Assembly (NCBI GenBank): GCA_038063815.1
Contig: JBBTUJ010000005.1
Location: forward strand, 4,875-68,874
DNA: 64,000 nucleotides
Direction of reading: 5' to 3'
Origin: Patescibacteria group bacterium
Lineage (GTDB): Bacteria > Patescibacteriota > Minisyncoccia > Phycocordibacterales > EsbW-18
Both the position numbers and the translations under genes were made by a program. Each line of letters begins with the position of its first letter. The stretch's first letter is position 1. The notes beneath the pieces were generated by a model, which did not search any database, was not told where the DNA came from, and worked only from the letters and a program-made list of their open reading frames with translations. Positions 4,698 through 29,042 of the stretch are shown one piece after another.

Positions 4698-5246
4698 GGA
4701 TCGTCCTCAGGATTCAGTCGTCACTATCTGACGCTCTATTCGATTATCCTTGGTATAGAAGCGAAGAGTGTGCTTGAGGTTGGTGCCGGATTCTCGACGC
4801 AGACGATACTTGCCGCGCTCAAAGAGACCGGAGGGAAGCTCATGACATTCGATATGCGTGACCTCAAGGGCACCGGCAATCCGGAGAGTCTTCGAACAGA
4901 GTTCGCAAATGCATGGACATACGTGCAGGGAGATACTCGGAATACATTGCACACGATCGAAAAGATGACATTTGACGTGATCCTCCATGACGGATCGCAT
5001 GAGTGGCGTGTCGTTCTGAAAGACCTTCGAAAAATACTCCCGCACATAAAACAGAATGGGCTTCTTCTCGTCCACGACACCGAACACCCGGCATTCCGTC
5101 TCAAATTCGCAACACGGCTCGCGCTCATCGGGTATCGACACGAAATAGTCACGCTCCCCTATGGCTACGGCCTCACGATTGTCCGTATCCTCGGCAACAA
5201 ACGAAACGGCTCAGTGAGAACGACCTGGGAAAAGAACAGAAAATAG
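4581..5246 (+). CDS. class I SAM-dependent methyltransferase (O-methyltransferase-like)
   Basis: VLEVGAGFSTQ motif I and DVILHDGSH. The ORF track starts at 4434, but that extension overlaps the divergent membrane glycosyltransferase gene, so an internal start (4581 or 4620) is more likely. Confidence 0.55.
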   Translation: MISIPMIRTVHTNMSVTDVYDTLDRYMQPDISRIVDAHHGSSSGFSRHYLTLYSIILGIEAKSVLEVGAGFSTQTILAALKETGGKLMTFDMRDLKGTGNPESLRTEFANAWTYVQGDTRNTLHTIEKMTFDVILHDGSHEWRVVLKDLRKILPHIKQNGLLLVHDTEHPAFRLKFATRLALIGYRHEIVTLPYGYGLTIVRILGNKRNGSVRTTWEKNRK

Positions 5247-7222: not shown

Positions 7223-7274
7223 GAAATTGACTATATCCTTCAGAAATGATGAACACAATGGTACTCTTAGAATA

Positions 7275-10091: not shown

Positions 10092-10112
10092 ACAAGATAG
10101 TATAGTTGTTTT

Positions 10113-10835
10113 CTAGGATTGCTTTTTCGGACGGGACAGAAGAACAAAAAACCTTGGCTCAAACACACGACTGTCATAGGGCACGACTTCCGACCCTGTG
10201 GGAGTGTCATAGATACCGAACCGACGACGCATCACGATCTCGCAAAGACGCACTGCACGTCGCACGAAATAATTCGTAAGCCAGCGAGAAACGAGTCGCT
10301 GGCCAAACATTTTCTCAACGATAAGATACGGAGAGAGTTCAGCGATAAGTTCGTCGTATCGATACTCGAGAACATGGAATTGATTGAGTGGGTGGATACT
10401 GAATGGGGATGTCACTTTTTTGTTCGGTGTCGAAATGATGACGAGCCCGTCCGGCGCGAGCCAGCGAGAGAGGTTCGCAAGATATGCGCGCCGCACCTCC
10501 TCTTCGAGATGTTCTATCGTTTCGAATGAGCAGATGATATCAAAGGATGCGTCGGGAAAAAGAGTATCACCCGCAGATGCTTCGATAAATTCGACACCGG
10601 CCTGCGCAAAATGTGTTTGCGCGTAGAGAATGGATTCGTGCGAAACGTCGACACCGGTATACGAAGTAGCCCCTGCGACAATGCACGTCGGGGCTCCGTA
10701 CCCTGTACCACATGCAATATCAAGGACCCGCTTTCCTTTGACAAACGCGGTCGCGAAAGCGTACCGTGCTTGGTGCTCTGCTTCCGTCCGTTCGGATGAT
10801 TCTCCGATAATAACTTGTTCCCCTGTCGCTTTCAT
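10113..10835 (-). CDS. class I SAM-dependent methyltransferase (Methyltransf_11/23-like)
   Basis: VLDIACGTGYG motif I, DIICSFETIEHL and LAPDGLVIIS. Confidence 0.75.
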   Translation of the reverse strand: MKATGEQVIIGESSERTEAEHQARYAFATAFVKGKRVLDIACGTGYGAPTCIVAGATSYTGVDVSHESILYAQTHFAQAGVEFIEASAGDTLFPDASFDIICSFETIEHLEEEVRRAYLANLSRWLAPDGLVIISTPNKKVTSPFSIHPLNQFHVLEYRYDELIAELSPYLIVEKMFGQRLVSRWLTNYFVRRAVRLCEIVMRRRFGIYDTPTGSEVVPYDSRVFEPRFFVLLSRPKKQS

Positions 10836-10842
10836 GTGTCCT

Positions 10843-11880
10843 CTACGATATCACACGCTCGATAACGCGCTTCAGGTCTTCCGCGATCTTCTCGGGAGTC
10901 CCGCGTGACATAAAAAGTTCGTATCCACCACCACCAATCCGCTTTGCAAGACCTGAGTCGTCGCGGAGAGAAAGTACCGCACGCGCAAGGTCATTCGAAT
11001 CTCCTGGAATACAGAGAAGAACGTTCTGCCCATCCTGTGCAATCTCTTCTATCGCCTCAGTACGTGCGGTAACAACAGGCTTCCGACATGCCCACGCCTC
11101 ATACACTTTGTTGGGAATAACGAGATGTATTTTGTGAGTCGTCCCGGCAATACCGATCGATACATCCGCTCGATTGATATATTCACGAAGATCTTCGTAC
11201 AGAACATCATCATGAAAAGATACCTCTGGATATTCCTTCTCATACATCCGCTTTATGCTTGTGCCAACAACTGAGATCTGTATCCCCTGTGCTGAAAGCA
11301 TCTTCCCCGCAGCAAGTACGGTAGGAACACCATGAAGCGGAATGTTCGTTCCGTGAAAGTGGACCGTGAAAGGGTGTGGCGACGAGGAATCATTTGCATC
11401 CGGATAAAAAACCGACGGATCGGATCCGACAAGAATGCGATGACTCCGTTCTGGGTCACACCCGAATTTGTTCACAAAAAAGTCGCGGTGGGCGAATGTG
11501 TCAAAAAGATATGCGTGCGCAAGGTGACATGAGAGAAGATCGAGGAGATAGTAGTATGCCGCGTGCAGACCTACACGTGAGTATTTCTGTCGGTCATCAA
11601 CAAGCGTCATGTGTAAAGAGAAAAACGGATCAAAAATAATCTTCTTTGACGATATAAGTCGCGCTAGTATGAGTGCCTGCTGTCCCGGAAACGCAACGAA
11701 CATGATGTCGTACCTGCCACGAATCTGAGCGTGCTTCCGAATGAGGTCTCTGTATTTTCCTACTCCCTTTTTGTTTGTTCTGCATTCGACAACTGTGTGC
11801 CCGCTTAACTCAAATGCACGCTTGAGGATGCGGTTCCTGGGGTAGGTGGGATCATAAATCCCAAAAAAACATATCTTCAT
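10843..11880 (-). CDS. GT-B fold glycosyltransferase (GT1/GT4-like)
   Basis: 345 aa with a GT-B pattern. It overlaps the upstream GT4 gene by 4 nt. Confidence 0.6.
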   Translation of the reverse strand: MKICFFGIYDPTYPRNRILKRAFELSGHTVVECRTNKKGVGKYRDLIRKHAQIRGRYDIMFVAFPGQQALILARLISSKKIIFDPFFSLHMTLVDDRQKYSRVGLHAAYYYLLDLLSCHLAHAYLFDTFAHRDFFVNKFGCDPERSHRILVGSDPSVFYPDANDSSSPHPFTVHFHGTNIPLHGVPTVLAAGKMLSAQGIQISVVGTSIKRMYEKEYPEVSFHDDVLYEDLREYINRADVSIGIAGTTHKIHLVIPNKVYEAWACRKPVVTARTEAIEEIAQDGQNVLLCIPGDSNDLARAVLSLRDDSGLAKRIGGGGYELFMSRGTPEKIAEDLKRVIERVIS

Positions 11881-12935
11881 ATATGCGCGTCGTTCAAAAT
11901 ACCAACCATCCGCTCTATGAGAGATTGGAGACGATGTTCCGATGCAATCTTTTGGACCAACACACGCAAGGATTGGAACTCTCCATCGCTACGTTGTGCC
12001 ATTTGTAGAAGTGCATTTGCAAGTGTTTGGGCGTCACCTTGAGGAAATGCGACGACACCGGGCCGACCGACGCTCACTGAAAGCGTTCCCTCATTACACG
12101 TCACGACAGGAAGACCTGCCGCCATCGCTTCAAGAGGAGCCTTATCAAGCGCGCCCGTCGTGCTAGCGCTCACAAACACGTGTGCCTTATGAAGATACGG
12201 GAGAATATCCTTTTGGGGGACAGGCCCAACAAATGTTATTTTCTCTGACAAACCGAGTTCTTTCACTCGATCGTGAAGTTTCTTTTCATATGCTACCTGG
12301 TCCGGCGTTCCGGGTCCGCCGATGATAGAAAGAATGATTGAAGTTCCACGCTCCGTAACAATACGGATTGCGTCGATGAGTGTCTCATATCCTTTTACCC
12401 GAGAGATCCTACCGAATGTTACTACGCGGAGAACATCGCGCGGGAGGATTTCGGTAGAAGGAATGAATCGTTCCAGATCGATGCCGTGGCCGACAATGTG
12501 CGTTTTGTTCGATTGAATACGAAAGCTCTCTGTGGTCGATGTAAAAATATCGTGAGCAAGAATGGTGGCGAGGCGAAGTGAGGCGCTGACCGATCCGTGG
12601 GTATACCAAAGACCGATACGTTTCTTGAGTGCGCGCCACACAACACCACCTAAAACCACATAGATTGGGTTCATGTGTACAAAAACCGCGTCATAGTTTT
12701 TTCTTTCCCGCCATATATATGCATAGAACCGACGCAGGTATTTGAAGTGCGAGGGGCCCTTTTCTTTTCCGAGAGAAAGGACATGAACATTCTTTGGAAG
12801 CGCGTGCACGCCTTCATACAAACAGATGACGACTACCGACTCGCACTTTTGTGCAAACTCTTCAATCCATCGGTGAAAAAATCCGAGATTGTCATCTGCG
12901 CTATCAACTTTTTGTGTAAGGATAAGAAGTTTCAT
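11877..12935 (-). CDS. glycosyltransferase family 4
   Basis: RISRVKGYETLIDA...LEAMAAGLPVV, with 4 nt overlaps to both neighbours. Confidence 0.8.
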   Translation of the reverse strand: MKLLILTQKVDSADDNLGFFHRWIEEFAQKCESVVVICLYEGVHALPKNVHVLSLGKEKGPSHFKYLRRFYAYIWRERKNYDAVFVHMNPIYVVLGGVVWRALKKRIGLWYTHGSVSASLRLATILAHDIFTSTTESFRIQSNKTHIVGHGIDLERFIPSTEILPRDVLRVVTFGRISRVKGYETLIDAIRIVTERGTSIILSIIGGPGTPDQVAYEKKLHDRVKELGLSEKITFVGPVPQKDILPYLHKAHVFVSASTTGALDKAPLEAMAAGLPVVTCNEGTLSVSVGRPGVVAFPQGDAQTLANALLQMAQRSDGEFQSLRVLVQKIASEHRLQSLIERMVGILNDAHI

Positions 12936-14071
12936 CTTCGGGAACTGACGAATTCAACCAGCGGACGCTGATAATCAAGAACGGTCTTTCCTCCATACTC
13001 TTTTTGGAACGCCTCTTTGATATTCCGTGAAAACCCTTCAAGAACATCCCTGTGTGAAGAGAGGTGTGTGATTTTTTCTGCATACGCTTCAGATTTTGCT
13101 TCCTGAGAAAGCACGTACCCTGTTTTTTCATCCATAACGAGGCCCTTGATTCCACCAACCTCTGCAGCAATAACAGGCATACCAGCAACAGCCGCTTCCA
13201 TGAATACGCGGGGGAATCCTTCATAGCGGGATGGCAAGAGAAGTACATGATGCGAAGAAAAGAGTCCTACAATATCGTGACGCGACACAACACCGCGCAT
13301 ATCGCACACACCATCAAGACCGCGTCGGTGTACCTGTTGTTCAAACCACGCACGCTCTCTACCCTTGCCGACAATAGTAAACCGCACACCGTTCCCCGTC
13401 GCACGTTTTGTTGTATCAATGATTTCGAGCAGAAGAGGAATATTCTTCTGCAAAACGAACCTTCCCATAAACAAAATCCTGAACGGAGATTCCGAGAGAT
13501 TCCTGGACAACGTCTGCAAAGCATCGAGATCCGTTGGCATCATCGGTTTGAAAAAAACTTTCTTACCATATTCTTCTTTAAGACGCTCCACGGTTTCAGG
13601 ACCATCTGTCTGGATCGCATCCGCCCTCTTGAGAACATGCGGTGCAAGAAGCGTATAGAATCTATGTTTGAGTGATTCCGTTCGAATAAAGACGTTGTGT
13701 ATGTCTGTACCAAAAACACCAGCAACCATGGGTATGTGAAAATGTTTTCCCACCAAGAGTCCTACCAGACCAAAAAGAAATGGGTCTTGTGTGATGATGC
13801 TCCCGGGGCGGATTTTCCTTACAACACGCCCAAGTGTTGTGGATACCCTTAAAAGACCGAGAAGTTTTGATCGGTACGGGACAGGATGCACAAAAACCCG
13901 CGGGAGAACTTCTCGCACTTCACGAAGCGGTGTCGGCGCTGAGAGTATCACGTGCACCGACGCGTAGAGTTCTGTGTACACCTGCATACGACGTGCCGTG
14001 TCACTTGTTGCGTCACCGACAGAGGCGTCGGTCGAGAGCATTACTACGGGTTGTTTTTCTAATGAGGGCAT
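12932..14071 (-). CDS. glycosyltransferase family 4
   Basis: EGFPRVFMEAAVAGMPVIAAEVGGI. The alternative start MLSTDAS at 14041 would avoid overlap with the upstream gene. Confidence 0.8.
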   Translation of the reverse strand: MPSLEKQPVVMLSTDASVGDATSDTARRMQVYTELYASVHVILSAPTPLREVREVLPRVFVHPVPYRSKLLGLLRVSTTLGRVVRKIRPGSIITQDPFLFGLVGLLVGKHFHIPMVAGVFGTDIHNVFIRTESLKHRFYTLLAPHVLKRADAIQTDGPETVERLKEEYGKKVFFKPMMPTDLDALQTLSRNLSESPFRILFMGRFVLQKNIPLLLEIIDTTKRATGNGVRFTIVGKGRERAWFEQQVHRRGLDGVCDMRGVVSRHDIVGLFSSHHVLLLPSRYEGFPRVFMEAAVAGMPVIAAEVGGIKGLVMDEKTGYVLSQEAKSEAYAEKITHLSSHRDVLEGFSRNIKEAFQKEYGGKTVLDYQRPLVEFVSSRR

Positions 14072-15078
14072 AGGGCAAGAAATTCGTGTGCGATATCTTT
14101 GTACGAGTGGATGAATGAAAGTGCGCGGACACGGAGGGCATACTCACGATAGTGGGTTTCGTCAGCAAGCGTCAGAAATGCGTTCGCTATTTCGTCTTCA
14201 TTAAGAGGGTCTACCAAAAATGCCGCGTTCCCAATACGATTTGTTATACCATTTTCACGAGTTAAAATGACTGGTTTTCCAAATGAGAGAGCTTCAAGAA
14301 TAAAGTTCGGTCCTATATCTCCGAGAGACACGAGAACCGCAGCATAACAATTTTTGAGTGCTTCGATAACTTCATCGTGTGGACGATTAAACCGAAGCGT
14401 GAGCGATATGCGCGGGAATTTCTCTTGTGCTTTTTTGAATGCGCGCTCTAATGTGTCCGTATTTTTCCACTTAAGATCTCGGACTATGCATACAAAATTT
14501 TTCTCTGCATCGGGAGATGGTGTTTCTACGACAGACACCGGCTCATAATTGTTCTCAATGACTGAAACCTTTGTTGAATCGACGATATATACAGGAACCC
14601 AGATATCACGCTGATATGTCGTATTAAATACGATTTTGTCCATTTGTTTCAATGCCCATCGCGTCAGTGTAAAAACCATTTTTTCTTTTTGTGTAAAATT
14701 TCGTTCTGCGCTATAAAATTCTGAAAAGAGTATTTTTTCTCCTGTCCGCTCCACATACTGCTCCCATAAAAAATCACCTCCCGTTCGAAGGATGACGTGC
14801 CCACCAAATATCTTTCTAAGAAGCGCCACCGGAAGACCGACGCTAAACGTGTCAAGTGTAATCGTTATATCCGCACGTATGAATCCCAAGATAGATTTTA
14901 AAAAATAGACAGCGTGGCGGATTCCCGTCGGAAGATGGTGCTCAATCGTGTATGTCCGCACAAAAACAGTATGCCCAAGAGATTCAAGGGCTGCTTTAAG
15001 TTGTGATGCGTAATGTCCCGTTCCCCCGGTCTTTGGGGGATAGATTCCTGTCGCAATAAGGATACGCATGCTTTTCAT
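14059..15078 (-). CDS. glycosyltransferase family 4
   Basis: MKSMRILIATGIYPPKTGGTGHY. The ORF track begins at 15135, but MKSM at 15078 is the likely start. Confidence 0.75.
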   Translation of the reverse strand: MKSMRILIATGIYPPKTGGTGHYASQLKAALESLGHTVFVRTYTIEHHLPTGIRHAVYFLKSILGFIRADITITLDTFSVGLPVALLRKIFGGHVILRTGGDFLWEQYVERTGEKILFSEFYSAERNFTQKEKMVFTLTRWALKQMDKIVFNTTYQRDIWVPVYIVDSTKVSVIENNYEPVSVVETPSPDAEKNFVCIVRDLKWKNTDTLERAFKKAQEKFPRISLTLRFNRPHDEVIEALKNCYAAVLVSLGDIGPNFILEALSFGKPVILTRENGITNRIGNAAFLVDPLNEDEIANAFLTLADETHYREYALRVRALSFIHSYKDIAHEFLALCPH

Positions 15079-15178
15079 GGTTGCATAAGTGAGTGAAAAA
15101 GGGAAAGCCGGACGCCAACTGCGCGCCCGGCTCAATTCTCCCCAAAGATCTGCTGACCCGAGCTCACTTAGGCCGTGG

Positions 15179-15667
15179 TTAGGCGATGCACATCCGGAGG
15201 AGAGGTGCGAACTTCTGGTTGCCGCTCAACGCAGCGATCTCACGGGCCTCGTCGAGCGTCATGAGACCAGCATTGACTGCCGCGACAAGAACAACCGCTT
15301 CATCGGCGTCCTCGGGGAGACCCGAGAATGCCATCACGAGGTTCTTAGCCGCACGAATCCCCCCGCCCCACTCGTTGCGTTCCGGATTGCGGCTCTCCGC
15401 GCTTGACCGAAGATTGTCCTGGATGATGCGCAAAACCTTCTCCACACAGTAGTCGACCGAGGGAGAGGTTGGTGGAACGTATCCTAGGCGCATCTTGAAG
15501 GGCATCCAGAGTTCCCCCCTCTTGTCTTTGCACCAGTTGAGAAAGAACCACCCCGCAATCTTCCTTCCCCTCTCGGAATCCTCGGTGAGACCATTCGCAA
15601 TGGCCACATCCAGGATCCGAGGGAGTGATCCGAGGATCTGACCCACGTGATCGAGCGTTGCGCGCAC
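15179..15667 (-). CDS. hypothetical protein (GC-rich islet inside the glycosyltransferase cluster)
   Basis: 162 aa ORF with a GTG start. The region is about 58-60% GC against roughly 45% neighbours. A GC hairpin plus U-tract lies downstream at about 15092-15131. No family recognised. Confidence 0.35.
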   Translation of the reverse strand: MRATLDHVGQILGSLPRILDVAIANGLTEDSERGRKIAGWFFLNWCKDKRGELWMPFKMRLGYVPPTSPSVDYCVEKVLRIIQDNLRSSAESRNPERNEWGGGIRAAKNLVMAFSGLPEDADEAVVLVAAVNAGLMTLDEAREIAALSGNQKFAPLLRMCIA

Positions 15668-15743
15668 CGTTGCACCAAACCTTTCCCCCCGATCAATGTC
15701 GGGGCTTGTCTAGACAAGATAATACGTAATGGGGAAGGTTATG

Positions 15744-16964
15744 TCAAATAACTTTCACAAAAACTTTTTCACGCATATCGCGCGCGACAGTGTCCCATCC
15801 GTATTTTACTCGAACCATCTCGCGCGCATTTTTTACAATCTTCTTGCGGAGTACATCATTCTCCATGAGCCGCACGACGGCACTTGCAATCGATTCGGGG
15901 TTTTTTACTTCACAAAACAATCCCGTCGGCGCTACCTTCCCCAGCGGGCTTTCGGGGTCTATCAAAAAATCGGGAATGCCACCGACGCGCGTTGCGACAA
16001 TTGGAATTCCGGCTGCCATTGCCTCAAGAAAACTCGAACCCATTCCTTCGGAGAGTGCTGGACGGACGAAGATGTCTGATACTTGGAGGTATGCGGGAAC
16101 GAGGTCTGTGTCTACTTGGCCGCAGAACCGCACGCGTTTTTGAAGTCCTTTGGACACGACTTCCTTCCACAATCGCTCCCCAAGAGGACCCGCGCCTAAA
16201 ACTAAAAATTTCACGCGCTCCGGCAATTTTGAAAGTGCTGCAATAACATCTCCAAGTGCATTCTTCTCAACAAGGCGTGATGTTGTCACGAGATATACTT
16301 CGTTCGGTTTCTTATTGAGGGCATAGATAAGTTTGTTTGTTTCTTTTGTATGCTTTGTACTTGCAAATCTTTCAAACTCAACTCCATTCGGAATAACAAC
16401 CGGCTCTCCGGGGTATCCCATGTCTTTTGCAAACTGTGCGAGATATTTTGAAATTGCCTGTACGACCGTTGCTTCAGTAAAAATGCGTTTCAAGAGTCCG
16501 GAAAAAAGACGGATGCGGCGGCGTTTCGTGATGTATTCCGTCGTGTCACCATCTTGGAGTGTCAAAATATACGGAGTCATATCCCGAAAAAATTTCCGCA
16601 ACAAAACCACGGGAAATCCCATATTTGTCATAAGAGACCAGTATGCATTGTAGGGTTTCCCCCGCGAAAGGGAGCACGCCTTCAAAACGGCGAGTGGCAC
16701 ATACAGAACCTTCACGAGATACCACGGGAAGCGGGAAAGATCTTCGAATGTAATCCCTTTTTTTGACGGGCCGATACGGTGAATCGTCACATTCCCAACC
16801 CTCTCAATACGTGGAAGGTTCGCGTCCGCGCGAAGAGCGATGAGGTCAAATTCTATCTCCTCCTTTGAGATCTGGTCCGTGATGAATCGCACGGCCATCT
16901 CCGCCCCACTCTCGTAGGGATGGTACATGAGAGAAAAGATGAGGATGCGCTTGGTTGCCATCAA
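15744..16964 (-). CDS. glycosyltransferase family 4
   Basis: EGMGSSFLEAMAAGIPIVATRVGGIPDFL. Confidence 0.8.
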   Translation of the reverse strand: MMATKRILIFSLMYHPYESGAEMAVRFITDQISKEEIEFDLIALRADANLPRIERVGNVTIHRIGPSKKGITFEDLSRFPWYLVKVLYVPLAVLKACSLSRGKPYNAYWSLMTNMGFPVVLLRKFFRDMTPYILTLQDGDTTEYITKRRRIRLFSGLLKRIFTEATVVQAISKYLAQFAKDMGYPGEPVVIPNGVEFERFASTKHTKETNKLIYALNKKPNEVYLVTTSRLVEKNALGDVIAALSKLPERVKFLVLGAGPLGERLWKEVVSKGLQKRVRFCGQVDTDLVPAYLQVSDIFVRPALSEGMGSSFLEAMAAGIPIVATRVGGIPDFLIDPESPLGKVAPTGLFCEVKNPESIASAVVRLMENDVLRKKIVKNAREMVRVKYGWDTVARDMREKVFVKVI

Positions 16965-16991: not shown

Positions 16992-18341
16992 TCATGAAGA
17001 CGCTTCTGTCACCTCAATAATCGTGAACGCGTGTGCTGGCGGAAGGCCTGTACCTGAACCGACATCTTTTCTTGTTCTCTGCGTTGTCAAAAAACCAAGA
17101 AGAGCAAGGGTACTTACAATAAGCGTTCCGGCAAGAATATACGGCAACACGCTTTCTGTATGAGACGCTGTCGGAACAACTTCTTCAACATACCCAAGCA
17201 CCTTATTTTCTACTACGGCGTTTGGTTCGTATGTGGCGGCTTTTTTGCCACCGGGATAGAGAAGTTCTACGCGGTCCTCTTTTTGTGGCAAAAGTTCGGT
17301 TACTTCTTCAGGAAACTTCACTGCACTTCGAGGTGCGATCAGAGTATCATCAGGAAACGTGAATGTGTCTCGTGATTTGCTTCCTTTCTCGTACTCAATG
17401 TGTATCTGCCAGCGTGAAAGGTCGAGTTCCGTTTCCGCGCCGTTCGCGACCTCGATGTATCCGCCGTTTCCCCAATCAATGTCGCTTAAGCGGACTTCTG
17501 CTGGAACCGCCGTCACCATGAGCTTATCCTTCGCCCTTTGATTGTCTCCAGAGACATTGAGAACAACCGTATACGTGCCAGGTTTTCGATACGTGTGCGC
17601 TTCTTCTTTTCCTTTTCCCTTTCCACCATCTCCAAATGACCATGCGTAGTTCGCCGCGGAGATTCGTATGTTTTTATCGCTCACGCCATACCCCTCAAAC
17701 AACGCCTGTGCCCCAACCGTCACAAGACGGTCTTCACCTGCATAGGCAAAAACGACCTGCTTATATCCACCCGTTATTGTTTTCTTGGCAGTTGTGCTCG
17801 AGGAGCTCGAGGAAGAAGTAGATGTTCCCGCAACTTCTCCCCCGGTATCCTCCGTGCTGTTAATCGCCTTTGGTGTCGGAACGCCTGTTATCCACGTCCC
17901 ATCGGCCTGACGTTGAGCTGTGTGTTTTGTTGTGTTGTTTCCGCCGAGATTCTCCCAGTTCGCGCCGCCTGAGGCCGTATCGACGACAACACCATCTTTA
18001 TCGAGAATCTTCAATGTCTCGCCCGTATTTCCCAAATCGCCCGTATATATCTTGTCTGCAGGAATTCCAGAAACACTTTCATCGTCTGTCCGTTCAAGTA
18101 AATAATAGCCACTAGCGGATATCGAACCAGAAAGCGCTATTGACGGACTTCCATCCTCTGCGATAAGTTTCCACCCAGTGAGTGAAACGAGATCTGCGCC
18201 ATCGTTCACGATCTCAATCCATTCATCTGTTGCTGACGTTACAGTTCCCATCCAAGCAACTTCGTTTATAAAAAGGGCTGCAAATGTTTGCGTTGGTGCG
18301 AGCGCCACAAACAAAACAAAAAGAAAAAGCTTCCGTTTCAT
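16992..18341 (-). CDS. secreted/anchored surface protein with two lamin-tail domains flanking a PKD domain
   Basis: N-terminal signal peptide MKRKLFLFVLFVALAPTQTFA. LTD-like LFINEV...WIEIVN and RLSDIDW...YIEVANG segments. PKD-like WSFGDGG...HTYRKPGTYTVVLNVSGDN segment. Poly-Ser/Thr stretch TSTSSSSSSSTT. C-terminal TM helix. Confidence 0.7.
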   Translation of the reverse strand: MKRKLFLFVLFVALAPTQTFAALFINEVAWMGTVTSATDEWIEIVNDGADLVSLTGWKLIAEDGSPSIALSGSISASGYYLLERTDDESVSGIPADKIYTGDLGNTGETLKILDKDGVVVDTASGGANWENLGGNNTTKHTAQRQADGTWITGVPTPKAINSTEDTGGEVAGTSTSSSSSSSTTAKKTITGGYKQVVFAYAGEDRLVTVGAQALFEGYGVSDKNIRISAANYAWSFGDGGKGKGKEEAHTYRKPGTYTVVLNVSGDNQRAKDKLMVTAVPAEVRLSDIDWGNGGYIEVANGAETELDLSRWQIHIEYEKGSKSRDTFTFPDDTLIAPRSAVKFPEEVTELLPQKEDRVELLYPGGKKAATYEPNAVVENKVLGYVEEVVPTASHTESVLPYILAGTLIVSTLALLGFLTTQRTRKDVGSGTGLPPAHAFTIIEVTEASS

Positions 18342-18386
18342 GCGAAAACTCTATCTCATGCAAGATAAAGAGGCGTTAAAGAATAC

Positions 18387-20372
18387 TTACTTCTTTTCCC
18401 GGTCAAACAACTTTTTCAAAACGTGTTCAGGAACTTCAGGAAGTGCTTGTTTCTGTTGAGAAAGATTTGGCGCAGGGGGCACGGGGGCACTCTGGGCAGG
18501 TTTCGGTGAAGGATTCTGGACTGGCGGAGGTGGCGGTGTTTGTTTTACTTCCTGCTTCGGTGGCTGGGATTGTTGTGGTTGTTGTTGTGGTTGGACTTGA
18601 GGAGCTGGTCGTGATGAAGGAGTTTGTTGCACGGGTTCTCGCGGAACAGGGGTTATACCCTCATCCGGGGCAACAGGTTGCTGAAGGACTGCCGCCAACG
18701 CGTCGCGTAAATCTTTCAACCGCTCTTCTGACGGTCCTTTTTCTTTCTTTTGGCGCGCACGCTCTTCTTCTTTAAGGCGCGAAAGAGAAACAGCTTGCCG
18801 AACCCGATCTTCACGATTAGAGAAACCTTTTTGTTTTCCTTCTTCTTGACGGGGTTCTCTTCCCTCCGGAGGTTTTACAGGGCTTCTTTGCTCACTGCGG
18901 GGAATTCCGGACTCCTCTTTTCTCTCCGGTGGCCTGCCGCCACGTTGTTCTCCTCGAAAACTACCTCCACCTCGTTGACCACCACGATCTCCCGAAGAAC
19001 TACCCTCCCGGCGAGGCGGCGGAGCAGAACGCGTCTCAGAGCGTCCGCCGCCTCCTTCTCTTTCCTCTCTACCAAACACCTTTTCGTGCCACGTAATGAT
19101 ATCTTCTTCAACGGGACGTCGTGCTCGGGCAAATTGCTCACGTGAACGAGCGATGGCGACATCGCGGTACGAAACAGCTGGTGACGCGATAGGTCCCAGT
19201 GTTCGCGCGGAAAAAGGAGCAGACGACATACCATCAATCATAAGTTTGAGGTATACCTGCGCAAACCCGAGATTCACGAGATCTTCTGCGGTGAAGAGCG
19301 GTGCGAATTCTTTTTCGAGATACTCGGCGTCCGTCGCACCAACACGGAATGTAATCATCGTTCCGACGTTGCCGAAGACGGCGGCACGCACTTCGTCAGA
19401 CATCTGCTCGATGTACTGATGCGCCATCGTGAGATTCAATTTATATTTTCGCGCCTCCGAGAGGATGTCCGCAAAGGACTCGTTCGCAAATGATTGGAAT
19501 TCATCGACGTAGAGATAAAAGTTCGGCAGTTTATTGAGTTCATCCTCACGCAAGTCGGCGCGTGACATCGCGGCAAGGTAAATCTTTGTGATGAGCATCG
19601 AGCCCAAGAGATTCGCGCTATCTTCACCCACCTGCCCTTTCGAAAGGTTAATGATGAGGATCTTGCGCTGATCCATGATCTCGCGAATGTTAAAAGACGA
19701 TTTCGACTGGCCGACGATATTCCGAATGACAGGATTCGCAGTGAATTGTCCAACTTTGTTCTGGATTGCAGGAGTCGCTTCGGCTGCGAATTTATCGGTA
19801 TATCGTGCAAACTCATCTTCCCAAAATGACTTCACACCAGGGTCAGTCACCGACGCGACCACAGCGGCGCGAAATTCCCTGTCAACGAGCATCCGGTTGA
19901 TTCCCAAAAGCGTTGCGCCTGGGTACTCGAGAAGCGCCAGAATCGTATTGTTCAAAATATATTCCATGCGGGCTGACCACGCATCAACCCAGATTTTCTT
20001 AAATGCAGACATGAGACCCGCCGCAACAAGGTGACGTTTGTCCGGACCAATATCTTCCATCACGTTGAATGAAACCGGATTTGCAAGATCAAACGGTGCA
20101 AAATACACGACATCATTGATACGATGCTCGGGAATGTAGTCAAGAAGAAGGTCAGCGGTCTTGCCGTGCGGATCAATGAAGGCGAATCCTTCGCCGTTCT
20201 GGATATCCTGCACCGCCATGTTCTCAAGCAGAGTTGACTTACCGGTTCCGGTCTTTCCGATGACGTAGACGTGACGCGTCCGGTCCTTGGCTTTAATGCC
20301 AAATTTGACGAGTTTATTCCGGTGGTCGGTCTCGCCGATATATGTGATTCTGTTTGGATCAAAAGAACTCAT
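18387..20372 (-). CDS. soluble VirD4/TraD/TrwB-like (type IV coupling protein-like) P-loop ATPase with RGG/PQ-rich C-terminal tail
   Basis: Walker A VIGKTGTGKSTLL, FIDPHGK, Walker B YLYVDEFQ and ARKYKLNLTMAHQYIEQ. No N-terminal TM helices. About 250 aa low-complexity tail. Paralog of 46202-48943. Confidence 0.6.
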   Translation of the reverse strand: MSSFDPNRITYIGETDHRNKLVKFGIKAKDRTRHVYVIGKTGTGKSTLLENMAVQDIQNGEGFAFIDPHGKTADLLLDYIPEHRINDVVYFAPFDLANPVSFNVMEDIGPDKRHLVAAGLMSAFKKIWVDAWSARMEYILNNTILALLEYPGATLLGINRMLVDREFRAAVVASVTDPGVKSFWEDEFARYTDKFAAEATPAIQNKVGQFTANPVIRNIVGQSKSSFNIREIMDQRKILIINLSKGQVGEDSANLLGSMLITKIYLAAMSRADLREDELNKLPNFYLYVDEFQSFANESFADILSEARKYKLNLTMAHQYIEQMSDEVRAAVFGNVGTMITFRVGATDAEYLEKEFAPLFTAEDLVNLGFAQVYLKLMIDGMSSAPFSARTLGPIASPAVSYRDVAIARSREQFARARRPVEEDIITWHEKVFGREEREGGGGRSETRSAPPPRREGSSSGDRGGQRGGGSFRGEQRGGRPPERKEESGIPRSEQRSPVKPPEGREPRQEEGKQKGFSNREDRVRQAVSLSRLKEEERARQKKEKGPSEERLKDLRDALAAVLQQPVAPDEGITPVPREPVQQTPSSRPAPQVQPQQQPQQSQPPKQEVKQTPPPPPVQNPSPKPAQSAPVPPAPNLSQQKQALPEVPEHVLKKLFDREKK

Positions 20373-20420
20373 GCAAAAAGAGATGTACCTTGTGAATGCT
20401 TTCTACAGTATAAAACAGCG

Positions 20421-20461
20421 GAGCAAAAACGAAAGGCCGCCGTTCTCGCGAACGGCGACCA
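20421..20461 (-). terminator. rho-independent terminator after the 94 aa ORF
   Basis: Minus RNA reads GGUCGCCGUUC-GCGAG-GAACGGCGGCC followed by UUUCGUUUUUG. Confidence 0.5.
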
Positions 20462-20484
20462 CCGAGAGAAACGCGAACGACCGT

Positions 20485-20769
20485 TCAGTCGTCCGCACGG
20501 GATGTAACCGTCGCGCTAGGATTCCACACCCTGACGCTCGTCCATCCTCCCTCTTGGACAACGACAGCGGCCGACCATCCGGCCGTCCGGACGAACCCGG
20601 TGATCTCGTAGACCTGACCGACCGTTAGGTACGGACCGAGTTCGACTCGGGCAAATCCGTTGGTCTGAAGCTGGACGCTGATCGCGCCCAGCACCCGCGA
20701 CTTCGCCTCTTCATTCCAGGGAAACCACTTGCCTCCCTGGGTCTTCTCAACTTGTCCTAAGGTGACCAT
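20485..20769 (-). CDS. hypothetical small protein (GC-rich cassette)
   Basis: 94 aa, about 60% GC. SD GGGAGGAA lies 8 nt upstream of the ATG. An intrinsic terminator hairpin plus U-tract sits at 20421-20461. Confidence 0.45.
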   Translation of the reverse strand: MVTLGQVEKTQGGKWFPWNEEAKSRVLGAISVQLQTNGFARVELGPYLTVGQVYEITGFVRTAGWSAAVVVQEGGWTSVRVWNPSATVTSRADD

Positions 20770-20848
20770 CGTTTCTGTTCCTCCCGTAGGTTTGTACTGC
20801 TCGCTGAAAGGGATGGTACTCTTCGAGAAACACTCTGTCTAGAAAATA

Positions 20849-22096
20849 TTATTCATTCAAAAGCGCCCCTCTTGTATAGGTATTCCCCGCATCCCACAGA
20901 GCCCAACTCGTGAGCCCAACATCGTATGTCGCCTGTATCTCCGCACGGACCATCTCCGGCGTGTATGTCGCTCCGAGATCGAAGTCCTGAATCCATGGGC
21001 GAAGTTGTGATTCTTTGATATCCCCGTGTCCTTTCTCTGCCTGCGCTTTCAAAAAGATAATGTCAGTCGTCGTCGCGGGAGACACAACGCTTGCCGCAAC
21101 AACACGCGCGCGCCGCGCGGCCTCCCTCATTGAATATTCGATAACCTCGTACGGATGCGCTGCCGGATCCGCAATACCGATAAAACCATCATTGTAGTGC
21201 GAGGGATACACCATCGGCATCACGTAATGGAAATACGGGAGCGCGCGTTCAAGCACTTGCCCGATACCAAGATCGTCCGTGTTCGTTGTTGTATACCCGA
21301 AGAGGTCAACGGAGAGTTTGGGCGCCGTATCGAATCCACGGGTTGGTTTCGAGAGGTGGTCATACAGGTATGCAAAGAAATCCTCGAGCCGCTCTTCTTT
21401 GTTTTTTCCTTCGCTCCACGTGAACGCGATATCTTTCATCGGACCATCTGATGGGTAGCGGACGTAGTCAAAGTTGAGCTCATCAAATCCGAGCACATAC
21501 GATTCTTCAGAAAGTTCGATGATATAGTCCCAGAACGGTTCCGCACCGACGTCGATGAACGAGAGTCCTTTATTATCTTTCCACGTGCTCCCGTCACTTG
21601 CTTTTTTCACCGCGAGTTCGGGGTGAAGTTTGCTGTAATGAGGGTCCTGAAACACGGTGATACGTCCGATGACGTAAATATTTTTTTCATGGAGCGTTTT
21701 GATGAACTCTTTCATGTCATAGGCGCCGCACGTATCTGAAACAGCATTTGCAAGAATTTCGTTGTCAGTTGTAAATGCAATCCTTCCCGAGAAATCCTTG
21801 ATATCAATAATGACAGCGTTGAGTTCCGTCTCATCAATAAGTTTGACGAGTTTTTCACGGAACGACGGCGTTCCGACAACACACTGCGTCATATAAATCG
21901 CCTTCAAGGGTTCGGGTGTCTCAAGATGGATGACATCGGGCTTCGGTGGTGGTGTTTTGAGTGTCTCGCCTCGGCCCACCAAATCACCATTCATGTACGT
22001 TGACGAAAAGAGTCGTGGTGCGGCAAAAAGAAGTACCCCGACGAGAATAAGGAGGACTATAAAAACAATGCGTCGCGGGGACAAAACTTTTTGCAT
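20849..22096 (-). CDS. membrane-anchored putative glycoside-hydrolase-like TIM-barrel protein (GHL10/DUF4015-like)
   Basis: N-terminal TM MQKVLSPRRIVFIVLLILVGVLLF. The start is taken at 22096 rather than the track's 22213, which would run through a large palindrome. The domain assignment is pattern-level only. Confidence 0.45.
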   Translation of the reverse strand: MQKVLSPRRIVFIVLLILVGVLLFAAPRLFSSTYMNGDLVGRGETLKTPPPKPDVIHLETPEPLKAIYMTQCVVGTPSFREKLVKLIDETELNAVIIDIKDFSGRIAFTTDNEILANAVSDTCGAYDMKEFIKTLHEKNIYVIGRITVFQDPHYSKLHPELAVKKASDGSTWKDNKGLSFIDVGAEPFWDYIIELSEESYVLGFDELNFDYVRYPSDGPMKDIAFTWSEGKNKEERLEDFFAYLYDHLSKPTRGFDTAPKLSVDLFGYTTTNTDDLGIGQVLERALPYFHYVMPMVYPSHYNDGFIGIADPAAHPYEVIEYSMREAARRARVVAASVVSPATTTDIIFLKAQAEKGHGDIKESQLRPWIQDFDLGATYTPEMVRAEIQATYDVGLTSWALWDAGNTYTRGALLNE

Positions 22097-22110
22097 AGAT
22101 GTATGGGCAA

Positions 22111-22157
22111 GTATACCCCAGCTGCTCACTTTTTTAAAAAATAGTGCTGGGGTATAC
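22111..22157. promoter_or_regulatory. 47 bp near-perfect palindrome in divergent intergenic region (operator-like)
   Basis: GTATACCCCAGCTGCTCACTTTTTT|AAAAAATAGTGCTGGGGTATAC, with 12 bp perfect outer arms. Confidence 0.4.
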
Positions 22158-22177
22158 CCCGCCGGACAAGGTTTTGA

Positions 22178-22525
22178 ATGAACGTTTTGGTGCAAGAACA
22201 CACTCTGATACACTCACTTCCAGACAGCACACTATGGGAAGGGGGCGTGGTGGAAAGAAATCCAAAAAAGCGAGTGCTCGATGCGGAGCAAGAAAGAGCG
22301 GCGATTCCGCCCCTGTGCGATTTCATCGACCACTACCTCGACCTCATGAACGAGAGGGAGTTGGTTGAATTTCTTGGCCGTTTCTATGGGAACGAAGCGG
22401 TGGAAGAAGAGATCGCGGCAATGGAGGTTGGGGACAAGGTCTACAAAGAGTACGTGCCGCATCTGAGGCGCGGTCCTCGGCCGCAAAACGGACACGACAC
22501 CGGGCTGAAAGTGAAAGGAGAGTAG
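22178..22525 (+). CDS. hypothetical small protein (GC-rich islet)
   Basis: 115 aa acidic ORF, about 58% GC. GGAAGGGGG lies upstream of the in-frame GTG codons. A second 66 aa ORF (22526-22726) follows, preceded by AAAGGAGAG. Both are weakly supported. Confidence 0.25.
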   Translation: MNVLVQEHTLIHSLPDSTLWEGGVVERNPKKRVLDAEQERAAIPPLCDFIDHYLDLMNERELVEFLGRFYGNEAVEEEIAAMEVGDKVYKEYVPHLRRGPRPQNGHDTGLKVKGE

Positions 22526-22784: not shown

Positions 22785-23471
22785 CTATTGATGTGCAACG
22801 ATAATCACAAATTCCCCGCGCTGTTTATCTTTTTGTGTTTCAAAATATTCCTGTACTTCTTTTGCGCTTCCCCGTACCACCTCTTCAAAGATTTTTGTGA
22901 GTTCGCGCGCAATGACAACCATACGTTCATCCGGCAATACTCCAACAAGAGAGGCAAGTGTTTTCAAAATGCGGTGTGGTGATTCGTAGAATACGACCGC
23001 GCGTTCTGTTTCTGCGATTTCTTTAAAAAGTGTTTGACGTCCCTTTTTGTGTGGTAAAAATCCGAGAAAAACAAATTCGTGTGTGGAGACCCCGGCAATC
23101 GAGAGCGCGGCAGCAAGAGCGGACGGTCCGGGAATCGCCTCAATTAAAACATCGGGAAGTTTTTCGCGTACGTGTCCAATAACAAGTGAGCCCGGATCAG
23201 ATATTCCCGGTGTTCCTGCATCCGTCACCAAAGCAACCTTCTTCCCTTCTGAAAGCGCTCCGATGATCGAACCCAATTTCACTCGCTCGGTTCGCGCATT
23301 GAGAGGTGTCATCCGCGTTGTTATCTCATAGCGATCAAGGAGCCGCCCCGTCACGCGCATGTCCTCACAGAAAATAACATCCGCCTCCTTGAGAATGCGG
23401 AGTGCCCGAAGCGTTACGTCTTCGAGATTTCCAATAGGTGTCGCAACGACAGATAATTTCGCTTCCTGCAT
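22785..23471 (-). CDS. rsmI: 16S rRNA (cytidine1402-2'-O)-methyltransferase
   Basis: KLSVVATPIGNLEDVTLRAL...EDMRVTGRLL...VALVTDAGTPGISDPG is the RsmI/tetrapyrrole-methylase-fold signature. Confidence 0.85.
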   Translation of the reverse strand: MQEAKLSVVATPIGNLEDVTLRALRILKEADVIFCEDMRVTGRLLDRYEITTRMTPLNARTERVKLGSIIGALSEGKKVALVTDAGTPGISDPGSLVIGHVREKLPDVLIEAIPGPSALAAALSIAGVSTHEFVFLGFLPHKKGRQTLFKEIAETERAVVFYESPHRILKTLASLVGVLPDERMVVIARELTKIFEEVVRGSAKEVQEYFETQKDKQRGEFVIIVAHQ

Positions 23472-26910: not shown

Positions 26911-27257
26911 CGCTTTGCCATCCTCGCGGATGACCATACATGTGTCTTTTCTTTTGTTCCGTTCATACCGGTCTTTCCCGGCTTGTCCGATTGCTTTAAG
27001 GATATTCAATCATAATCCATCACGTACTCAATTGAGGTACATGATATCGACCGCCTTGATCAAGTATTCAAAAACTGAACACTCGACGATTTGTCATTGG
27101 ACAAAATCCACGAGCAGCTTCCGCTACCCGTGCCTTGTTACGCCTTAACCCTAGTCACCGAACTTGCCTTAGAACATGAGAACCATGTGCTTCGGGCATT
27201 CCCGGCTCCTTTGACTTGGCGGGCGGTGAGTACAAGGCTCGAGAACGTATTCACCGT

Positions 27258-27289
<32 letters not shown>

Positions 27290-27452
27290 ACTTCATGAGG
27301 TCGAGTTGCAGACCTCAATCCGAACTGAGGATGGCTTTCTAAGGATTGGCTCGGGATTACTCCGTCGCGACCTGTTGTACCACCCATTGTATCACGTGTG
27401 TAGCCCGAGGCATCAGAGGGACATGCTGACTTGGCGTCATCCCCGCCTTCCT

Positions 27453-27594
27453 CCCAGCACGAAGCGTACGATGTACGCTTCAAGTTAAAAGTTTGTAAAG
27501 TTATAAAGTTTATAAAGTATTTTTTGTATTCACTTTACGAACTTGATGAACTTTTTACTTTCTACTTGAAGCGCTTCACGCGCTTTGTGCTGGG
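27453..27594. repeat. 16S V7 (h40-loop) insertion containing a copy of the AT-rich dispersed repeat, flanked by GC palindromes
   Basis: CCCAGCAC...GTGCTGGG closes the stem. Inside lie GAAGCGTACGATGTACGCTTC and GAAGCGCTTC hairpins plus the AAGTTATAAAGTTTATAAAGT...GATGAACTTTTTACTTT repeat. Confidence 0.6.
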
Positions 27595-28511
27595 CGGTCT
27601 CGTCTGACACTTATAACAGACGATAGGGGTTGCGTTCGTTACCCCACTTAAGGGAACAGCTCAAGCCACGAACTGACGACAGCCATGCATCACCTGTCCA
27701 GCCGCCCGAAGGCTCGTAAAGTTTCCTCTACGATTCGTCTGGATGTCTAGCCTCGGTGAGGTTCTTCGTTTAGCATCGAATTAAACCACATGATCCACCG
27801 CTTGTGCGAGCCCCCGTCTATTCCTTTGAGTTTTAACCTTGCGGTCGTACTACCCAGGCGGATCACTTAACGCGTTAGCTTCGCCTCTCAGAGGGTCGAT
27901 ACTCCGAAAAGCTAGTGATCATCGTTTAGGGCCAGGACTACTGGGGTATCTAATCCCATTCGCTCCCCTGGCTTTCGTGTTTCAGCGTCAGATATATGCT
28001 AGTGTACTGCCTTCGCTTTTGGCGTTCCCCACGATATCAACGGATTTCACCCCTACACCGTGAGTTCCGTACACCCCTCATACTCTCGTAGTTGTACCGT
28101 TTCCCATGCGGATTTCTGGTTAGGCCAGAAGATTTGACACAGGACTAATACAACCGCCTACACACCCTTTACGCCCAATAATTCCGGATAACGCTCGGGG
28201 CTCTCGTATTACCGCTGCTGCTGGCACGAGATTAGCAGCCCCTTATTCATCGGGTACCGTCAAAATTTCTTCCCCGATAAAAGATCTTTACGTCCCGAAG
28301 GACTTCATCAATCACGCGGCGTCGCTCCGTCACACTTTCGTGCATTGCGGAAGGTTCTTGACTGCAGCCACCCGTAGGTGTCTGGACAGTGTCTCAGTTC
28401 CAGTGGTGGGGGTCAGGCTCTCACCTCCCCTACGCGTCATAGCCTTGGTAAGCCATTACCTTACCAACTAGCTGATACGAGGCAGGCCGTTCTAGAAGCG
28501 ATAAATCTTTA

Positions 28512-28646
28512 CCCGCACACTAACTTTGGCATTGTCTTCAGTACGCCGAGATCATTGTCACATTATCTGTGATAACTATTCGGGAATAACGATAATAAAC
28601 CTTCCACACAACTGCCTTCGGCGTAATGCCAAAGTTAGTGTGCGGG
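28512..28646. repeat. 16S V2 insertion forming a 22 bp perfect stem (CCCGCACACTAACTTTGGCATT / AATGCCAAAGTTAGTGTGCGGG), with a partial third copy at 28664-28690
   Basis: A perfect 22 bp inverted repeat encloses 91 nt, with an inner ACGCCGA/TCGGCGT extension. It is absent from E. coli-type V2. Confidence 0.65.
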
Positions 28647-29042
28647 TTTACTCCGATTTGAAGACCATTACAAAGTTAGTGAGCGGGACCATCAGGTATT
28701 AGCCCATCTTTCGATGAGTTATTCCTGACTTCTAGGTACGTTCCCACCCGTTACTACCCCGTTTGCCGGTTGCCCTTGCGGGCCCCCTTGACTTGCATGC
28801 CTTAACCACGCCGCCAGCGTTCATCCTGAGCTAGGATCAAACTCTACATAAGAATCACAAATTGCTTTGTGATTTTTCTGAACGGAACAAAAGAAACAAC
28901 ACATGTATATCGTTCTTTGTTCTTTTTTTCCAGCACGTAGCTCATGCGTGCCGGACTTAGATACTTTACTTGTTTAGGAATAGACGAGTACTCCCAACAC
29001 TTATTCGAGTGCTGGAAAATCTTGTACTCTCTACTTATTTTA

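Follow-up and report, generated by a model that had tools for sequence, protein, structure and literature searches.

A chromosomal T4CP-family ATPase of Patescibacteria without a membrane anchor and with a conserved peptide at the end of its disordered tail

Introduction

Homologues of VirD4-type type IV coupling proteins (T4CPs) are common in Patescibacteria. A survey of this group counted 5,713 of them in 2,918 of 3,035 genomes, about two per genome, and found only 148 of the 5,713 genes (2.6%) near virB4 (Quinonero-Coronel et al. 2025, PMC12102498). According to the same study, VirB4 is present in 2,417 genomes (80%), fewer than possess T4CP homologues, and relaxases are nearly absent. For S. 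epibionticum it reports that the T4CP gene is dispensable while the bacterium's type IV secretion system (T4SS) is essential; the T4SS cluster of this organism is without a recognizable coupling protein (Wang et al. 2023). The survey passages that deal with the orphan T4CPs count these proteins without mentioning their architecture, leave their function open and call them "possibly exapted". The present study deals with ATPase1, a putative T4CP-family ATPase of 661 amino acids, and with its paralog ATPase2. Both are encoded on a stretch of 64,000 nucleotides of a Patescibacteria group bacterium (assembly GCA_038063815.1, contig JBBTUJ010000005.1, positions 4,875 to 68,874), hereafter called the window.

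Some well-known coupling proteins possess C-terminal extensions that contact other proteins. The extension of TraD of the F plasmid binds TraM, that of Legionella DotL the adaptors IcmSW, DotN and LvgA. For TraJ, the T4CP of the Gram-positive plasmid pIP501, membrane anchoring via a separate small protein, TraI, has been proposed, and TraJ interacts with the peptidoglycan hydrolase TraG. The class to which ATPase1 belongs is already known and annotated, and the locus is one instance of it, ordinary for a genome from the candidate phyla radiation (CPR). Newly described here are the missing membrane anchor, the modules of the tail, the VirB4-like N-terminal domain of the paralog, homologues in phages and the conservation of the chromosomal positions.

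Results

ATPase1 belongs to the VirD4/TrwB branch of the FtsK-HerA superfamily

ATPase1 is encoded at 18387-20372 on the minus strand of the window, on which all features described below are located unless stated otherwise. Two T4CP profiles of Pfam matched the protein clearly above their cut-offs, PF10412 (TrwB_AAD_bind; residues 26-346) with 35.9 bits compared to 20.5, and PF02534 with 30.3 bits compared to 20.1. A third one, PF12696 ("TraM recognition site of TraD and TraG"), reached 22.6 bits at a cut-off of 22. The NCBIfam models that matched were TraD and VirD4-like ones, far under their equivalog cut-offs (SXT_TraD, 50.9 versus 366 bits). The core, residues 1-430 (19083-20372), is predicted to form a nucleotide-binding domain with an all-alpha insertion, and its translation contains the T4CP motifs that a first-pass annotation of the window had pointed out. 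These are the Walker A motif GKTGTGKS (20235-20258), in which G39, K40, T41, G42, G44, K45 and S46 are invariant, the FIDPHG motif (20163-20180), the Walker B motif YLYVDEFQ (19494-19517) with invariant D290, E291, F292 and Q293, and the motif EARKYKLNLTMAHQ (19416-19457). Judged by its sequence, ATPase1 thus contains a P-loop domain that passes curated T4CP cut-offs and whose Walker A and B motifs are intact.

In an alignment of 50 homologues (58-83% identity), all catalytic motifs were invariant. Approximately 170 columns did not vary, and for residues 21-400 the conservation per block of 20 residues was between 0.70 and 0.96. ATPase1 therefore has an intact, strongly constrained enzyme domain, and its core is conserved like that of a housekeeping enzyme. 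In the AlphaFold2 (AF2) model the predicted local distance difference test score (pLDDT) exceeded 85 over residues 50-290. This part includes helices at 113-234 between strands 88-91 and 238-242, i.e. between Walker A and Walker B, and the model hence predicts the all-alpha insertion at the place where T4CPs have it.

A sequence search against the PDB yielded TrwB as the best and sole clearly significant match, whether the query was the single sequence or a profile of the 50 sequences. DotL came next, with much weaker E-values and among a few unrelated marginal matches. Using the model as a query, Foldseek returned Cag-beta, HerA, TrwB and DotL together at E-values of about 1e-9; the top target-normalized TM-score (0.61) was that of TrwB. 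The fold thus places ATPase1 in the FtsK-HerA superfamily and the sequence profiles in the T4CP branch of it. Taken together, the protein is best described as a predicted cytoplasmic P-loop ATPase of the VirD4/TrwB (T4CP) branch. The T4CP-like placement suggested beforehand therefore held in the profile comparison, with which the structure comparison agrees at the level of the superfamily, and neither a better fit to the FtsK or HerA family nor a canonical partner operon emerged.

Several other assignments were considered and rejected. An identity as HerA is not supported, since DUF87 reached only 22.9 bits (cut-off 23.2) and covered no more than residues 19-71, while the likeness of the folds is one at the level of the superfamily. 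The HerA partners NurA, Sir2 and DUF4297 were not found among the profiled neighbors of ATPase1. FtsK/SpoIIIE can be dismissed because ATPase1 gave no FtsK_SpoIIIE Pfam match at E≤0.01 and has neither a transmembrane segment nor a gamma domain; no FtsK chain was among its top 50 Foldseek matches. It is not a VirB4 protein either, as it has no N-terminal domain and scored only 19 bits with TIGR00929 (cut-off 643). In PADLOC, ATPase1 matched mad8 (E 2.6e-16) and, weakly, HerA and DndH. Membership in a MADS defense system was nevertheless rejected, because the neighbors are DUF4015, LTD-PKD, glycosyltransferase and rsmI genes and not an eight-gene mad operon. None of the other mad models matched any of the four proteins run in PADLOC, the neighbors having been scanned with Pfam and NCBIfam only.

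The family is large. ATPase1 homologues form at least 8,000 clusters at 90% identity, and all named matches among those listed come from Patescibacteria. The listed homologues are 53-90% identical to ATPase1 over the aligned parts, and many of them bear the NCBI name [quoted passage not shown]. When 1.84 billion cluster representatives were searched exhaustively, 6,164 of them matched at E≤1e-30. The words "first" and "essentially uncharacterised" in the first-pass annotation are therefore overstated if taken to mark a discovery: besides the number of clusters and the NCBI names, orphan T4CPs have been counted before (PMC12102498).

A tail with conserved modules instead of an N-terminal anchor

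ATPase1 has no N-terminal transmembrane domain, a domain that is expected of T4CPs. The Kyte-Doolittle maximum was 1.13 and no stretch of 19 residues was as hydrophobic as a transmembrane segment, in line with the anchorless protein that had been proposed. An N-terminal anchor is impossible in ATPase1, since even if the maximal ORF (open reading frame) is taken, Walker A already begins at residue 39. The start sites of the orthologues differ from this one by no more than a few residues.

Residues 431-661 (18390-19082) constitute a tail with pLDDT values below 50 over most of its length. It comprises 231 residues and not about 250 as estimated at first, but the composition noted at that time was found again (P 16%, R 12%, E 12%, Q 11%, G 9%): three RGG and one RG cluster at 463-479 and are followed by a Pro/Gln-rich tract. 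In the inspected full-length homologues the tail is 116-255 residues long (median 197) and its sequence is not conserved. As the orthologous tails vary in composition (G 1-13%, R 3-14%), richness in RGG is not a conserved feature, and the RGG character of the ATPase1 tail is lineage-specific. A Pro/Gly/Arg-rich extension (..GGDHSRDGGGRGGKEFSKNPRRSRGRGRPER..) was also observed at the N-terminus of ribosomal protein S5 (55409-56107), so that in this genome the ATPase is not alone in having an RGG-type low-complexity extension.

According to AF2, the tail is disordered apart from helices at 515-563 and 649-659. Residues 515-563 (18684-18830) could be aligned in nearly all of the 50 homologues. 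For this conserved helix pair, helices are predicted at 515-528, 530-544 and 549-563, and the consensus reads A-V-S-L-x-x-L-K .. K-G-P-S/T-x-E-x-L-x-x-L-R-x-A-L-A-x-V-L. The second module is the peptide EVPEHVLKKLF (18405-18437 by translation), which ends five residues before the stop codon; a helix is predicted here at 649-659. Its consensus is E-V/I-P-E-x-V-L-K-K-L-F. Of 120 database homologues, 89 had the peptide or a close variant of it, and so did, on visual inspection, nearly all of 76 genome orthologues; in a six-frame translation of the window it occurred only once. More distant orthologues show the pattern K-E-[IV]-[PS]-E-[DE]-x-L-[KR]-x-[IVM]-L-x-[VI]-[DE], and in other, more distant clades of the family the tails end in [PD]G[QE]x[IV]x[FL] (proteins P0274, P0277, P0286, P0289, P0301, P0322 and P0340). 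Both the helix pair and the terminal peptide seem to be hitherto undescribed conserved elements of ATPase1-family tails.

A linker that varies and ends in a conserved peptide is what characterizes a docking motif, and the peptide of ATPase1 is therefore a candidate docking peptide. Protein docking is favored over membrane insertion by the invariant acidic E-x-P-E flank and the approximately neutral net charge. For the same reasons, the alternative that the peptide is a membrane-targeting amphipathic helix, for which the end of MinD, presumably ...GFLKRLFGG, served as a comparison, was judged less likely. The FtsZ C-terminal peptide, which we take to be D-I-P-x-F-L-R, resembles the ATPase1 peptide with the register off by one residue. 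Neither the window nor any of the fetched loci contained an FtsZ or FtsA gene for a comparison of peptides. The clade-specific endings suggest that docking partners may be lineage-specific as well.

The paralog ATPase2 combines a T4CP-like ATPase domain with DUF8128

A paralog at a distance of 26 kb had been noticed from the sequence, and BLASTP bore this out. ATPase2 (46202-48943, 913 residues) is 41% identical to ATPase1 over 427 residues (E 5e-104). It is composed of DUF8128 and a T4CP-like nucleotide-binding domain, and has no tail. The ATPase domain matched T4CP profiles of Pfam and NCBIfam, while TIGR00929 yielded only 16 bits (cut-off 643); a weak match to a phage FtsK/SpoIIIE-like PHROGs family was also recorded (E 0.0077). 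The DUF8128 domain (PF26449), assigned via precomputed annotations of ATPase2 homologues, comprises residues 1-478 (47510-48943) and appears to adopt the fold of the VirB4 N-terminal domain. As the DUF8128 query was devoid of a P-loop and matched no other P-loop ATPase, the fold match should indeed concern this domain. By sequence, DUF8128 displayed no similarity to solved structures, and only the fold comparison was informative.

The cluster representatives closest to ATPase1 fall into three architectures, 79 having only the tail, 26 an N-terminal extension plus the tail and 20 only the extension. Those with the extension are 46-57% identical to ATPase1 and thus more similar to it than the paralog from the same window. 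Given identities of up to 57%, ATPase1 looks like a branch of the DUF8128-ATPases that has lost the N-terminal domain. It was not classified as a proper member of the DUF8128-ATPase family, because DUF8128 is absent, but as belonging to a tail-bearing branch without N-terminal domain.

Related proteins also occur in phages. PHROG 5156 was matched by ATPase1 (E 5e-54, profile positions 388-806) and by ATPase2 (E 2e-80). With tblastn, homologues were detected in Bacillus phage G (gp156; JN638751.1, 90946-93111), in SPO1-like phages, SP-10 and D6E (further phage records OQ921336.1 and AB605730.1). To our knowledge, a T4SS is not to be expected in large Bacillus phages such as G, SP-10 and the SPO1-like ones, which would point to an activity of the family that is independent of T4SS.

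The position of ATPase2 recurs in another genome, where the spc operon, secY, adk and map likewise precede the gene and the genes of RNase J and smpB follow it. Several ATPase2 homologues have split or partial records, the pieces of which are collinear with the intact 913-residue protein; these were therefore read as probable frameshifts of the assemblies rather than as products of gene fission. Between map and ATPase2, the window encodes a low-complexity protein of 990 residues (49246-52218), which is absent at the equivalent position of locus L083. It gave no match in Pfam, NCBIfam or PADLOC and has no transmembrane segment. The gene on the other side (45118-46380) encodes an adenylate-kinase-like protein that is extended considerably at its N-terminus, a canonical adk being located at 52993-53631. 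As the maximal ORF at 45118-46380 reaches 179 bp into the 3' end of ATPase2, its true start is probably located further downstream.

Genomic context

The window is part of a Patescibacteria (CPR) chromosome, as evidenced by a 16S rRNA gene, tmRNA, ribosomal-protein operons, secY, ftsH and recG, and its GC content is even. ATPase1 is one of four co-directional ORFs at 16992-22096, which encode a DUF4015 protein, a 94-residue protein, ATPase1 and an LTD-PKD protein. This arrangement had been reported before; ORF and Pfam analyses confirmed it, and the same four genes were called independently in the public record of the identical sequence. The DUF4015 protein (20849-22096, 415 residues; PF13200, E 1.2e-85) is a putative glycoside hydrolase with a TIM barrel. 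Its maximal ORF extends to 22213 (20849-22213), the public record having the start at 22096. It has a single hydrophobic anchor at the N-terminus, and its nearest solved structure (4s1a) is itself uncharacterised. Downstream of ATPase1, separated by a gap of just 45 bp, lies the gene for the LTD-PKD surface protein (16992-18341, 449 residues), in which Pfam recognized two LTD stretches and PKD, and a hydrophobicity scan a signal-like N-terminus and a C-terminal transmembrane segment. The co-directional order of a membrane-anchored TIM-barrel protein upstream and an LTD-PKD protein downstream was thus described correctly. Further downstream follows a glycan-biosynthesis cluster (3363-16964) with six GT4 and one GT2 glycosyltransferases, two methyltransferases, oxidoreductases and a PMT_2-like protein; only a GFO-type oxidoreductase gene (7221-8207) is on the plus strand. 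Upstream of the DUF4015 gene lies a gene for an rsmI-type methyltransferase (22785-23471, PF00590).

The 94-residue ORF (20485-20769) is preceded by a GGAGG ribosome-binding site, and the public record lists it as a gene. As stated before, it is rich in GC (0.61; 0.70 at third codon positions, GC3, compared to 0.49-0.51 in its neighbors), but it proved not to be a member of the conserved locus. A tblastn search against 80 related loci gave zero matches, and a protein collection of 5.8 billion clusters contained, besides the protein itself, only one relative (76% identity), for which reason it was rejected as a piece of a conserved system. The ORF is a lineage-specific orphan in a variable slot. 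Between it and ATPase1 there is a terminator-like hairpin (20435-20460; 11 bp, eight of them G-C, with a T-run). Because of this strong hairpin at the 3' side of the ORF, the DUF4015 gene and ATPase1 are probably separate transcription units in this genome. The slot itself (20373-20848) measured approximately 0-800 bp across loci L002-L080 and contained unrelated small ORFs on either strand. For the gap of 476 bp, neither blastn and tblastx comparisons with related loci nor Rfam pointed to a conserved element of RNA or DNA. Another small ORF of 115 residues, which the public record also annotates as a gene, lies on the plus strand between rsmI and the DUF4015 gene (22178-22525). It had no family match and none in the 80 related loci; in many related genomes a gene for a small transmembrane protein on the ATPase strand occupies this position instead.

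Gene order was compared by tblastn in 80 fetched loci, which were the best matches and originated mostly from Paceibacteria. DUF4015 was found upstream of the ATPase orthologue in 53 loci, almost always on the same strand and with 39-71% identity to the protein of the window, and rsmI in 47, on the ATPase strand. GT4 glycosyltransferase genes followed downstream in 36-47 of the loci, again nearly always on this strand, and the order rsmI, DUF4015, ATPase, GT4 recurred in most of the 80 genomes. In most loci the ATPase gene was immediately followed, on its own strand, by GT4 genes or the gene of the LTD protein, the LTD gene in 18 of 80 by tblastn and in 16 of the 74 loci with a downstream gene by clustering. 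Clustering also revealed alternative neighbors, among them a small transmembrane protein, Mur ligases, in a few loci PilB-PilC-pilins, opposite-strand GT2/GT11/methyltransferase clusters, and an O-antigen-ligase-like protein with MurB and SecA. In L043, L049, L054 and L063 type IV pilin genes are located immediately upstream of the ATPase1 orthologue; they are preceded by pilB- and pilC-like genes in L043, L049 and L054, and L063 contains a PilB-like ORF in the locus. Since rsmI, whose function is unrelated, is about as syntenic as DUF4015, gene order is no proof of a functional link. The simplest reading of the conserved order is an inherited gene order in a region that seems envelope-flavored.

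VirB4, VirB6, relaxase and integrase models had no match on 28 Pfam-profiled ORFs, i.e. the larger ORFs covering most of the window. In the right flank of 10 kb, the genes called belong to ribosomal-protein operons only, and T4SS channel, relaxase or integrase genes are not among them. ATPase1 has no T4SS linkage locally, as far as profiled. The recurring gene order, the uniform GC content and the housekeeping genes that surround the locus speak for vertical inheritance on the chromosome.

Two RNA genes of the window deserve mention. At 34750-34822 (plus strand) there is a tRNA-Ile gene with the anticodon TAT (UAU). Bacteria rarely have such a tRNA, since most of them read AUA by means of a CAT tRNA that is modified with lysidine. 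The 16S rRNA gene (27096-28852, minus strand) measures 1,757 bp compared to a model of 1,533 positions, due to about 220 bp of inserted sequence. Insertions of this kind are common in CPR rRNA genes.

Discussion

To explain an anchorless coupling-protein-like ATPase with a conserved tail end, we regard it as most likely that ATPase1 is a tail-tethered ring translocase co-opted from conjugative coupling, an interpretation to which we assign an even chance. The core would form an ATP-driven ring like TrwB, VirD4, HerA and FtsK. The last 231 residues would act as a flexible, fast-evolving tether with the helix pair and the terminal peptide, and in place of an N-terminal anchor they would dock the ring onto a partner protein, in parallel to the adaptor-binding C-terminal extensions of known coupling proteins and to the anchoring of TraJ. 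The substrate might be DNA, less probably unfolded protein, moved at or near the envelope, and the protein would probably have shifted from conjugative coupling to a housekeeping-type role on the chromosome. The family is vertically inherited, occurs in nearly all Patescibacteria and is unlinked to type IV secretion genes. A co-opted role is somewhat likelier than classical coupling, given that the family is more widespread than VirB4, that the survey reports the gene as dispensable in a case in which the T4SS is essential, that Bacillus phages possess homologues and that the sister paralog has a VirB4-like domain of its own.

Several points weigh against this interpretation. Ring, substrate and partner are inferences, as is the independence from the T4SS. 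AF2 confidence was just moderate for residues 300-390, and the structure search does not separate T4CPs from HerA (4d2i, 1e-9). The synteny sample is made up of best matches, and the breadth of the architecture across the phylum was sampled through cluster representatives only. The dispensability result was obtained with a Saccharibacterium, i.e. in another lineage (PMC12102498), and two paralogs could mask each other in such a test. Furthermore, T4CP genes of genuine conjugative systems are often unlinked to virB4, as stated in the same survey, so that non-linkage leaves a classical coupling role open.

Such a role is a serious rival, though we consider it the weaker proposition. ATPase1 would then be the genuine coupling protein of a chromosomal Gram-positive-type (MPF-FATA-like) T4SS encoded elsewhere, to which it would be recruited by its tail or by a small membrane protein in order to deliver T4SS substrates. 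Homology to T4CPs in profiles, PDB search and fold is what one would expect in this case, adaptor-binding C-terminal extensions are known for T4CPs (PF12696; DotL, F TraD), and pIP501 TraJ with its TraI anchoring and TraG interaction is a precedent. A VirB4-type T4SS is available in 80% of the genomes, and T4CP genes often lie away from virB4 (PMC12102498). On the other hand, the survey figures speak against coupling, as T4CPs occur in 2,918 genomes and VirB4 in 2,417, with about two T4CPs per genome and 2.6% of the genes near virB4; relaxases are almost absent, and the gene could be dispensed with where the T4SS could not. The homologues in Bacillus phages argue in the same direction. The location of ATPase1 next to the 45-bp gap and the LTD-PKD gene could also be taken to mean that it energizes a surface module together with the DUF4015 protein, the LTD-PKD protein and the glycosyltransferases, serving export or assembly of glycans or glycoproteins. 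DUF4015 lies upstream in 53 of 80 loci and GT4 or LTD genes directly downstream in most, envelope-related neighbors (Mur ligases, PilB-PilC-pilins, the O-antigen-ligase-like protein, SecA) occur elsewhere too, and TraJ interacts with a cell-wall hydrolase. However, rsmI, a 16S rRNA methyltransferase without an envelope role, is about equally syntenic (47 of 80), the hairpin and the non-conserved slot part DUF4015 from the ATPase, the LTD gene is found in about a fifth of the loci, and the downstream neighbors switch orientation and family between lineages. Moreover, we know of no FtsK-HerA-class ATPase that drives glycan export. This explanation is therefore unlikely, and the functional link to the surface proteins suggested in the first-pass annotation is not supported, the LTD gene being directly downstream in just 16-18 loci.

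Very improbable, in our estimation, is an origin as remnant or cargo of a mobile element, a prophage or an anti-phage defense system with a HerA-like or MADS Mad8-like ATPase. It could account for the mad8 hit (E 2.6e-16), the weak HerA and DndH hits, the match to PHROG 5156 (E 5e-54) with the phage homologues, and the deviant GC3 of the adjacent 94-residue ORF. But no integrase, relaxase, nuclease, Sir2 or methyltransferase-partner model matched the profiled neighboring ORFs, GC is uniform, the chromosomal position is conserved across 80 genomes, and the near-universal occurrence and very high conservation of the family are typical of core genes. As a further and more novel reading, one may speculate, with considerable reservation, that ATPase1 and ATPase2 together form a T4SS-independent translocation motor, a housekeeping machine of Patescibacteria that large Bacillus phages borrowed. 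If true, this two-ATPase motor may pull in or handle DNA in organisms unable to make nucleotides, and the tail peptide would be an address label for the envelope or the division site. On the whole, the initial observation at this locus is confirmed and its interpretation partly supported.

Patescibacteria represent a large share of bacterial diversity, are host-dependent and have very few genes. Yet 96% of the genomes in the survey still keep about two T4CP-like ATPases unlinked to T4SS. Identifying cargo and docking site would address the question of coupling-protein co-option as raised there in 2025, and the answer could bear on DNA acquisition and handling or on protein secretion in these bacteria. 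The candidate docking peptide, the helix pair, the VirB4-like paralog domain and the phage homologues make the family experimentally approachable.

What ATPase1 has in common with TrwB of R388, VirD4 and Cag-beta is the nucleotide-binding domain with its all-alpha insertion, in which the Walker A, DPxG, Walker B (DE) and R-K...Q segments align. What separates it from them is an identity of only about 16%, the lack of an N-terminal transmembrane domain, the long disordered tail and a neighborhood without T4SS or relaxase genes. Like ATPase1, F-plasmid TraD and Legionella DotL consist of a motor and a flexible C-terminal extension with docking segments, those of ATPase1 being candidates, but both are membrane-anchored parts of a T4SS, and the sequence and motif of the ATPase1 tail are unrelated to theirs. 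TraJ of pIP501 is a coupling protein that relies on another protein for its attachment to the membrane; by contrast to the chromosomal orphan ATPase1, it is encoded in a conjugative tra operon with a relaxase. HerA shares the fold of the superfamily, and 4d2i ranks equal to TrwB in Foldseek, whereas ATPase1 has no HAS-barrel and just a beta-hairpin before Walker A. ATPase2 mirrors the order of VirB4/TrwK, in which an N-terminal domain is followed by the ATPase, but it has no VirB3, VirB6 or VirB8 neighbors and its ATPase domain is of the T4CP type. The phage proteins (PHROG 5156; phage G gp156, SPO1-like phages, SP-10) have the same layout of DUF8128 and ATPase as ATPase2, ATPase1 corresponding to their C-terminal half; identity is just 21-23% and their function is likewise open. 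Finally, ATPase1 is one of the orphan Patescibacteria T4CPs counted in PMC12102498, which were detected by T4CP profiles and are rarely located near virB4.

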